Below, piece after piece: positions 6,001-7,135 of a DNA stretch of 7,135 nt. The stretch lies in assembly GCF_003334255.1 (NCBI RefSeq), contig NZ_QOWU01000096.1. One strand, written 5' to 3'. Source of the stretch: Escherichia coli (GTDB lineage Bacteria > Pseudomonadota > Gammaproteobacteria > Enterobacterales > Enterobacteriaceae). The position numbers are program-made. Each line of letters starts with the position of its first letter. Position 1 is the stretch's first letter.

Positions 6001-7135
6001 TGGAACAAAAGGGGGGATGAACAAAGCTAATAGCCTGGATAAAGCAGGTTTGACGCTTTACCGGAAGGAAAAATTAAGCCGCGATAACCCTCAGTACAGT
6101 GGGCTTCAATTGCCCAAAGAGGAGCGTTCTTATCGCGGCTCTGTAGATAAAATACTCTATCCTGAAGATATTCGCAAGGGGCCGTATTACTCCCGTACCA
6201 GCAGTCTGACATCGGAAGAGACAATTGCATCGCGTTTTGTGCGTCAGATGCAGGATAAATTCCAGGTGCTGAAAGCTGTTCAGGAGAACATCCGTAAAAC
6301 TGGCGGAAAAATAGACGACAGTAACAACGCTTATATGGCGGAAGAACTCTTCCACGGGAAGGCGGAAAACGACCTGAACGTGATGAAGGAGCGCTACGTT
6401 CAGCCACTGGCTAAATTACTGGCGGACTACAAAATTGCGCAGGCCGATCTGGATGAGTACCTCTACGCCCGTCACGCGCCGGAACGTAACGCGCATATCG
6501 CGAAAATCAACCCGAAAATGCCGGACGGCGGTTCGGGGATGACCAACGCGGAAGCGGCGGAAATCATGCAGCGTGTACGTAACAGTGGCAAACAGGCACA
6601 GTATGACCGTCTGGCAGGGATTATTGACGATATGCTGGCCCGTCGCCGTGAGCTTATCCGTGAGGCCGGACTTGAAGAGAGTGGTGTGGTGGATGCCTGG
6701 CAGAACGCCTACCGTTACTACGTTCCCCTGAAAGGTCAGGATATTGACGGTGTGGTGTCACTGCCCCGTACAGGTAAGGGCTTCACTATCGGCGGACGTG
6801 AAAGCAGGCAGGCCATGGGGCGTGCATCCCGTGCACAGTCTCCGTCCACTCAGGCGATACAGGACCTGAGCGAATCGCTGATCCGCCATCGCAAAAACGA
6901 AGTGGGTAACGCCTTCCTGAAACTGGTACAGGATAATCCCGACAAGGATTACTGGCAGGTATTCACTGATGACAGACCGGATACCATGCGTGTGATTGCA
7001 GAGCGCAAGGACCAGGAAACTGGTGAAACCATTCGCGAAGTTGTCGAGCGTCCGGTGGCGATGGCAATGATGGCGGATCGCTACTTCACCACCAAAAAGG
7101 ACGGCAAAACTTACTACATTAAACTTCATGATCCG

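Follow-up and report, generated by a model that had tools for sequence, protein, structure and literature searches.

The analysed DNA, hereafter the window, is a 7,135-nt stretch of the Escherichia coli contig NZ_QOWU01000096.1 (assembly GCF_003334255.1). It is 93–99% identical to the late region of 186 records of short-tailed Stx-converting phages (Sepvirinae). On its plus strand, one reading frame of 2,209 codons runs without a stop from 509 to the last base of the window, and the ATG at 563 (MAFSDEQ) is the probable start codon. This frame is the orthologue of 933W p72, AU5Stx1 gp85 and phi24B gp47, the giant polyvalent protein of short-tailed Stx phages (~2,810 aa, ~300 kDa), whose gene is located after the tail-fibre and virion genes. 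The window contains the following features:

7–477, plus strand: 3' end of the upstream gene, in the family of AU5Stx1 gp84 (421 aa, phrog_601), with 59% identity to the gp84 C-terminus
509–7135, plus strand: gene for the giant polyvalent virion protein, an open frame cut by the window end
3698–4147, plus strand: LPD5 domain, codons ~1064–1213 (Pfam PF18799, E 2.8e-45)
4091–4867, plus strand: HExxH metallopeptidase-like region with LPD1 at its end (NCBIfam CLCA_X, Pfam LPD1)
5795–6064, plus strand: MuF_C domain, codons ~1763–1852 (Pfam PF18819, E 1.2e-17)
6218–7135, plus strand: first domain of the C-terminal unit described below, visible for unit positions ~12–317 (PHROGs 14770 and 10691, alignments, AlphaFold models)
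6458–6544, plus strand: helix with L-x-A-x-H-A-x-E-R-N, then a G-S-G-M loop that opens the following helix (conservation, models)
6707–6841, plus strand: Y-x-x-Y-V-P-L-K-G and the basic loop G-x-G-F-x-x-x-G-x-E-S-x-x-A-x-G-R (near-invariant; low model confidence)
6953–7126, plus strand: five-stranded beta subdomain, unit positions 257–314, with conserved W257, K304 and G307 (models, alignment)
6758–7129, minus strand: antisense ORF of 123 codons, open also in AU5Stx1 and 933W

The initial annotation of this DNA had singled out positions 6440–7135 as a globular-looking module that continues beyond the window, and had quoted three strings from it. All three are present in the open frame, at 6458–6490 (YLYARHAPERN), 6707–6736 (AYRYYVPLKG) and 6773–6841 (GKGFTIGGRESRQAMGRASRAQS). 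The segment 6440–7135 corresponds to the final 232 codons of the frame (residues ~1978–2209). Because the window protein and AU5Stx1 gp85 are identical at 231 of these 232 amino acids, we took gp85 as the downstream sequence of the window protein; the gene is complete in the AU5Stx1 RefSeq record (2,807 aa, annotated as 'LPD5 domain-containing protein'), and phrog_616 covers its product end to end (residues 14–2807). Past the equivalent of the window end, the gp85 frame runs for a further 598 residues before its stop codon, with no earlier stop or frameshift, and the frame thus continues downstream as had been supposed.

The locus has a mixed history. The order of the upstream gene and the giant gene is conserved in Vibrio phage D66 (AU5Stx1 gp84 against D66_0020, E 2.5e-11), and BLAST of the crAss-like contig, Ruegeria and Bacillus loci discussed below recovered no such partner gene, which is detectable only between Stx and Vibrio phages. 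Over its first ~300 nt (509–940 region), the giant gene shows only ~80% identity to AU5Stx1-type phages, as against 97–99% for the 3' half of the window. Together with the 59% identity of the upstream gene, this difference points to a mosaic locus in which a recombination boundary falls within the giant gene. We rejected the antisense ORF at 6758–7129 as a gene: it carries six amino-acid changes where the sense frame carries one, and is therefore best seen as a by-product of the coding strand. An Rfam search of the window gave no matches. In Escherichia phage GER2 (MG710528), a ~2.7-kb insertion at 7948–10643 splits the giant gene at a site equivalent to approximately 4545–4558 of the window. 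The minus strand of the insertion has three ORFs (216, 115 and 523 aa), arranged as is usual for elements of the IS66 family, to which it putatively belongs. The split accounts for the lack of an annotated gene at this locus in GER2.

The N-terminal and central parts of the window protein carry several unrelated domains in one polypeptide, namely LPD5, the HExxH region with LPD1, and MuF_C, to which the complete orthologue adds LPD38. With this set of domains and a gene that follows the tail-fibre and virion genes, the protein is a polyvalent protein in the sense of Iyer et al. 2017, who apply the term to combinations of unrelated domains encoded among phage late/virion genes. The match of the HExxH region to NCBIfam CLCA_X has an E value of 1.3e-44, yet lies under the curated cut-off, and the LPD1 match (codons ~1374–1453) has an E value of 3.2e-23. 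One HExxH motif, HEWFH at 4397–4411, falls in the zincin-like region ahead of LPD1, and a second, HEIIHH, is found at 5198–5215; both fall outside MuF_C. In a preprint on phi24B, MuF_C is termed a 'metallopeptidase domain' and a peptidoglycan-degrading role is proposed (10.64898/2026.04.10.717836). Since MuF-C is a PBECR RNase-type domain according to Iyer et al. 2017 (PMC5512222) and the HExxH motifs lie elsewhere, the domain assignment behind that proposal appears doubtful. Pfam scans of the whole window protein detected no N6-adenine methyltransferase and no helicase domains.

We found that the segment 6440–7135 belongs to a much larger conserved block. When compared on its own with PHROGs, it matched phrog_616 (E 6.6e-164), phrog_14770 (E 1.3e-85) and phrog_10691 (E 7.8e-31), and the latter two families match AU5Stx1 gp85 from residue 1893 or 1912 onward. 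Residues ~1893–2805 are thus one block common to other families of giant phage proteins of 3,400–4,650 aa. A profile of this ~900-residue unit (~890 positions), searched against 1.84 billion representative proteins, retrieved 23,293 protein clusters at E <= 1e-3, including 12,668 at E <= 1e-30. In all of the best 150 of the 23,293 matches, the full length of the unit is present and forms the extreme C-terminus of the protein (protein lengths 896–5,535 aa), and it has the same position in AU5Stx1, 933W, Vibrio phage D66, Ruegeria phage 45A6 and Bacillus phage PK1. Among 140 of the best-hit proteins, the C-terminal 900 residues could be aligned in 100% of pairs with a mean coverage of 97%, whereas the N-terminal parts reached 50% coverage in only 2.2% of pairs, with a mean coverage of 8%. 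Stand-alone versions of ~900–1,040 aa also occur. These comparisons show the unit to be a single evolutionary block, always C-terminal, that is fused to unrelated sets of N-terminal domains. Within cultured phages, tblastn with the third of the unit that contains the segment and with the remaining two thirds found 333 and 335 phage genomes, respectively, with identical genus counts. As the unit is shared as one block and its parts co-occur one to one, the segment is not a separable module.

The only named family in this region, Pfam LPD38 (PF18857), matches AU5Stx1 gp85 at residues ~2490–2695 (E 1.2e-48), beyond the cut window, and spans only ~200 aa of the unit (positions 598–803). The most conserved stretches of the unit (93–119, 176–213, 343–368 and 480–539) all lie outside it. 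At the level of sequence, LPD38 as defined in Pfam is therefore a fragment of the ~900-residue unit, whose opening domain holds the segment 6440–7135.

In cultured phages, the unit accompanies a portal protein of the 933W/GP4/Bcep22 type. The counts are 101 of 104 genomes for Vibrio, 31 of 31 for Ralstonia and 10 of 10 for Burkholderia, and the Stx phages also have both. An exception is formed by F116-like Pseudomonas phages, which share the portal and have a different C-terminal block on their giant protein (see below). The 1,474-aa protein of Bacillus phage PK1 (OM112209, 601–5025) ends in a complete unit (E 6e-43 with the family HMM); the unit thus extends beyond phages that infect Gram-negative bacteria, and this speaks against a function devoted to passage of the outer membrane or periplasm. 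Bacteroides phage BF1-TP2 gave a weak tblastn match to the unit. On a 60-kb phage contig from a JGI metagenome (Ga0634391_01313, 1–12889), a stand-alone LPD38-type protein of 962 aa comes last in a series of very large, virion-type genes, of which the first (1,725 aa) is a crAss-type muzzle gene with crAss_MUZ_C and the next ones encode 320, 601 and 1,370 aa, a context that suggests that the unit is present in crAss-like phages too. Another stand-alone protein (981 aa, 57% identical to the Stx-phage unit) is encoded in an Amphritea sp. MAG (JBALVQ010000053, 10001–12946). It lies in a ~16-kb island with an integrase, an excisionase, a YqaJ exonuclease and an S24 repressor, and with no obvious capsid or tail genes; the island might represent a satellite or what is left of a prophage.

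The segment itself makes up most of the first domain of the unit, which is strongly conserved and has no name. The initial annotation was right that the module is cut by the window edge, as the domain (unit positions ~12–336) ends ~19 residues further on, and was mistaken about where it starts: the conserved unit begins near 6218, ~74 codons ahead of 6440, with a Q-D-K-F motif at 6251, and position 6440 falls in the middle of a helical bundle. We aligned the C-terminal part of 27 diverse homologues (down to ~28% identity) and then of 157 representatives. The positions that had been called invariant-looking proved to be conserved at 95–100% in the latter set: H97, A98, E100, R101, N102 and G116-S117-G118-M119 (unit numbering throughout), as well as Y179-V-P-L-x-G184, G212-R213 and R234. 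Conserved to the same degree are the L-x-A-x-H-A-x-E-R-N motif as a whole, G-x-G...G-x-E...A-x-G-R, N238, W257, K304 and G307. Among Stx phages, the segment evolves under purifying selection, with dN/dS values of 0.04–0.12. It is hydrophilic and mildly basic, as part of a unit that is basic as a whole (pI 8.1–9.7), and the loop that follows Y-V-P-L-K-G contains six Arg/Lys residues and many Gly residues. No transmembrane segments were found in 6440–7135; the one marginal candidate in the unit is a moderately hydrophobic conserved helix at positions 571–589.

AlphaFold2 models were obtained for the whole unit (28-sequence alignment; pLDDT 78.8, pTM 0.73) and for its first third alone (36 sequences; pLDDT 83.2, pTM 0.78). 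The confident separate model of the first third suggests that it is an autonomous domain. This domain is modelled as a bundle of long helices followed, near the window end, by the five-stranded beta subdomain (unit 257–314). The G-S-G loop forms a glycine-rich loop at a helix N-terminus in both models, and the Gly/Arg loop has a pLDDT below 50 in both (unit 185–212 in the whole-unit model and 186–209 in that of the first third). Fold searches with these models returned only generic helical-bundle matches. Among them, weak matches to the DinB-like bundle were rejected, as the defining His triad is absent. We found no match over the segment 6440–7135 in Pfam (the C-terminal third of the orthologue, the window protein and 36 family members), in NCBIfam at E <= 10, or in the PDB (by sequence and with two profiles). 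A helix-hairpin-helix reading of P-D-G-G-S-G-M-T-x-x-E-A was likewise discarded: its Ala is two residues out of register relative to G-h-G-x-x-x-A, and there was no match to the HhH family.

Work on related phages places proteins of this kind in the virion. LPD38-type proteins are polyvalent proteins for which packaging and injection have been proposed, with MuF or portal domains serving as the anchor in other architectures (PMC5512222). The phi24B orthologue, gp47, was detected in purified virions and was absent from the reconstructions; it was proposed to be an encapsidated ejection protein (10.64898/2026.04.10.717836). With 10,962 spectral counts (major capsid protein, 17,998), it was the second most abundant protein, and its counts fell mostly in the first-listed gel slices (10.64898/2026.04.10.717836), which we read as the high-mass end. 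Burkholderia phage JC1 gp69, a 4,515-aa protein with LPD38 near its C-terminus, is virion-associated (PMC9144972). For E. coli phage PTXU04, knock-down of the LPD38 protein led to a large drop in plating efficiency (PMC11879866), although the essential function of that protein could reside in its N-terminal part instead of the unit.

We propose that the unit is a carrier for packaging and ejection and that the domain in the segment is an interaction module with a loop that becomes ordered only in a complex, a proposal that we judge slightly likelier to be right than wrong. The constant unit would bring the protein into the capsid and, at infection, out through the short tail, and it might also contribute to a conduit across the envelope. 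The delivered cargo would be the variable N-terminal enzymes, such as LPD5, the zincin-like HExxH region with LPD1, and MuF_C/PBECR. The first domain, with its helical bundle, beta subdomain and basic Gly/Arg loop, would then serve as the interaction module, its conserved surface becoming ordered only against a partner, which could be another copy, the portal or tail channel, or DNA. This role is suggested by a constant C-terminal unit joined to variable N-terminal cargo, by the stand-alone forms, by the association with one virion type and by the lack of a known catalytic fold, and the literature adds that an orthologue is abundant in the virion and that a family member is required for infection. 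That packaging and ejection belong to the unit itself, and not to another part of the protein, is what we infer from these patterns. Several observations fit the carrier less well. The invariant polar residues H97, E100, R101, N102, S117, Y179, E206, R213 and R234 would also suit an enzyme or ligand site, and the invariant blocks at 343–368 and 480–539 are likewise compatible with an enzyme or ligand-binding site. Insertion into a membrane finds weak support in the single moderately hydrophobic helix, and the stand-alone Amphritea homologue lies in an integrase/repressor island without obvious structural genes. A bolder extension of the carrier model is possible, although we regard it as doubtful: the unit would be a widespread and structurally unprecedented delivery vehicle of short-tailed phages, carrying up to ~4,600 residues of arbitrary N-terminal cargo, and its motifs (H-A-x-E-R-N, G-S-G-M, Y-V-P-L-x-G and G-R, together with N-P-E-F / N-F-N-R-x-G downstream) would form a new kind of machine for translocation or for penetrating the envelope, one that might itself include a catalytic step.

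Alternatively, the domain could be, or be part of, an undescribed type of enzyme with a function in entry, its target being, for example, the cell wall, the membrane or nucleic acid. The helix with H, E, R and N, the G-S-G loop and the G/R loop would then form an active site or a phosphate/anion-binding site, in line with the catalytic or nucleotide-binding site that the initial annotation had suspected. The high conservation of the polar residues in relatives down to ~28% identity, the modelled glycine-rich loop at a helix N-terminus and the richness of polyvalent proteins in enzymatic domains (PMC5512222) are consistent with this idea. Nevertheless, we consider it unlikely. The domain matched no catalytic family in Pfam, NCBIfam or the PDB, by sequence or by fold, and the DinB-like matches lack the residues that define that family. 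An ADP-ribosyltransferase, a nuclease and an NTPase had been put forward as activities to consider; we looked in the segment for the ART fold, nuclease folds and a Walker A motif and did not encounter them, and the absence of Walker A, already noted at the outset, was evident from direct reading of the 232 residues. Iyer et al. do not place LPD38 among their potentially enzymatic LPDs, and their model misses the segment 6440–7135 (PMC5512222). Moreover, one would expect an effector enzyme to differ from phage to phage as the N-terminal parts do, and an enzyme is less expected here because the unit is the piece that stays constant among otherwise shuffled effectors. Nothing in these searches supports a known enzyme type for either the domain or the unit.

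It is less probable still that the domain binds phage DNA, for instance the leading end of the genome, and pilots or protects it at entry instead of forming part of a channel. The hydrophilic, mildly basic character of the segment, the basic pI of the unit and the conserved, unstructured loop rich in Arg/Lys and Gly are compatible with DNA binding, as is the presence of the protein inside the capsid together with DNA (10.64898/2026.04.10.717836). Against it, no helix-hairpin-helix, OB-fold or other DNA-binding family was detected in the domain. This alternative overlaps with the carrier model, and the present evidence fits both. Finally, the segment might be taken for a linker or spacer, or for DNA that is non-coding or read in the wrong frame, an idea whose only argument is the absence of database annotation for these residues. 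It is refuted by the 2,209-codon open frame, the low dN/dS, the confident autonomous fold and the thousands of homologues with near-invariant motifs.

Among known systems, the closest relatives of the window protein are the members of the LPD38 family (PF18857; PMC5512222), to which it belongs: 933W p72 (NP_049532), AU5Stx1 gp85, phi24B gp47, Burkholderia phage JC1 gp69/Bcep22 gp75 ('DarB-like') and E. coli phage PTXU04_00025. For the Stx phages, this is the same gene. All share a C-terminal unit with LPD38 and a gene position at the end of the virion block, and they differ in their sets of N-terminal domains. The published and Pfam definitions of LPD38 leave the first domain of the unit outside any curated model. 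The P1 DarB protein is likewise very large and packaged in the virion, and it enters the cell together with the DNA (PMC9144972). The 'DarB-like' label (phrog_10089), however, derives from methyltransferase and helicase parts of Bcep22-type proteins that have no counterpart among the Pfam domains of the window protein, and the segment 6440–7135 reaches phrog_10089 only via the common C-terminal unit.

The PLxRFG/NF032893 'tail-700' proteins, such as Pseudomonas phage F116 p60 and a 3,851-aa protein of vB_PaeP-D14I, resemble the unit in their organization. They, too, have a C-terminal block (~700–950 aa) in giant polyvalent proteins whose N-terminal LPD/ART domains vary, occur in stand-alone versions and are encoded after the tail genes in phages with a homologous portal, and their P-L-x-R-F-G motif recalls the Y-V-P-L-K-G of the segment. 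Homology nevertheless could not be shown in an HMM comparison or in hhalign comparisons with a single sequence, 28-sequence profiles and deeper profiles, none of which was significant. Neither the unit nor two stand-alone homologues matched NF032893 at E <= 10, where an F116-type protein scores 799.7 bits, and the family HMM of the unit did not match the F116-type protein. With 28-sequence profiles, hhalign gave a probability of 3% (E 0.014), which fell below 1% with deeper profiles, and the weak aligned segments (probability 3% or less) were roughly co-linear. Since homology is not demonstrable, we treat the 'tail-700' block as a positional analogue only, for now.

Podoviruses need internal proteins that span the envelope, and the N4 virion RNA polymerase has domains for encapsidation and injection. 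The delivery anchors that we compared, namely MuF/SPP1 gp7 and portal fusions (Iyer et al. 2017), the N4 virion RNA polymerase, T7 gp14/15/16 and the P22 ejection proteins, share the logic of the proposed carrier, in which one unchanging part ensures packaging in the capsid and release through the tail, taking other activities along into the cell. We found no similarity in sequence or fold between the unit and these anchors, none of which appeared among the PDB matches listed, and tblastn of the unit against Schitoviridae genomes gave no match. MuF_C in the window protein corresponds to the PBECR part, not to the head-binding domain of MuF.

The gene and the protein class were known before, and an ejection role had been proposed earlier for the phi24B orthologue. 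What is new is that the segment 6440–7135 lies in a conserved domain that folds autonomously and has neither a curated model nor a structural relative, that the current definition of LPD38 captures just a fragment of a ~900-aa unit, and that this unit forms the invariant C-terminal end of an enormous family. The unit offers a target for asking how podoviruses package and eject a ~300-kDa protein, and likewise how these phages cross the cell envelope. If the carrier idea is true, the unit could serve as a means of bringing foreign proteins into phage particles, and it would be considerably more interesting if it were a general protein-delivery vehicle or hid a new activity. Recognition of the unit would also tidy up annotation, as the proteins concerned are now labelled 'hypothetical', 'LPD5 domain-containing', 'LPD38 domain-containing', 'DarB-like antirestriction' or 'DNA methyltransferase'. 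The last of these labels is also found on the giant 'tail-700' protein of vB_PaeP-D14I (BK061585, 3554–15109), which is encoded in a genome with a 933W-type portal and has the NF032893 block at its end.
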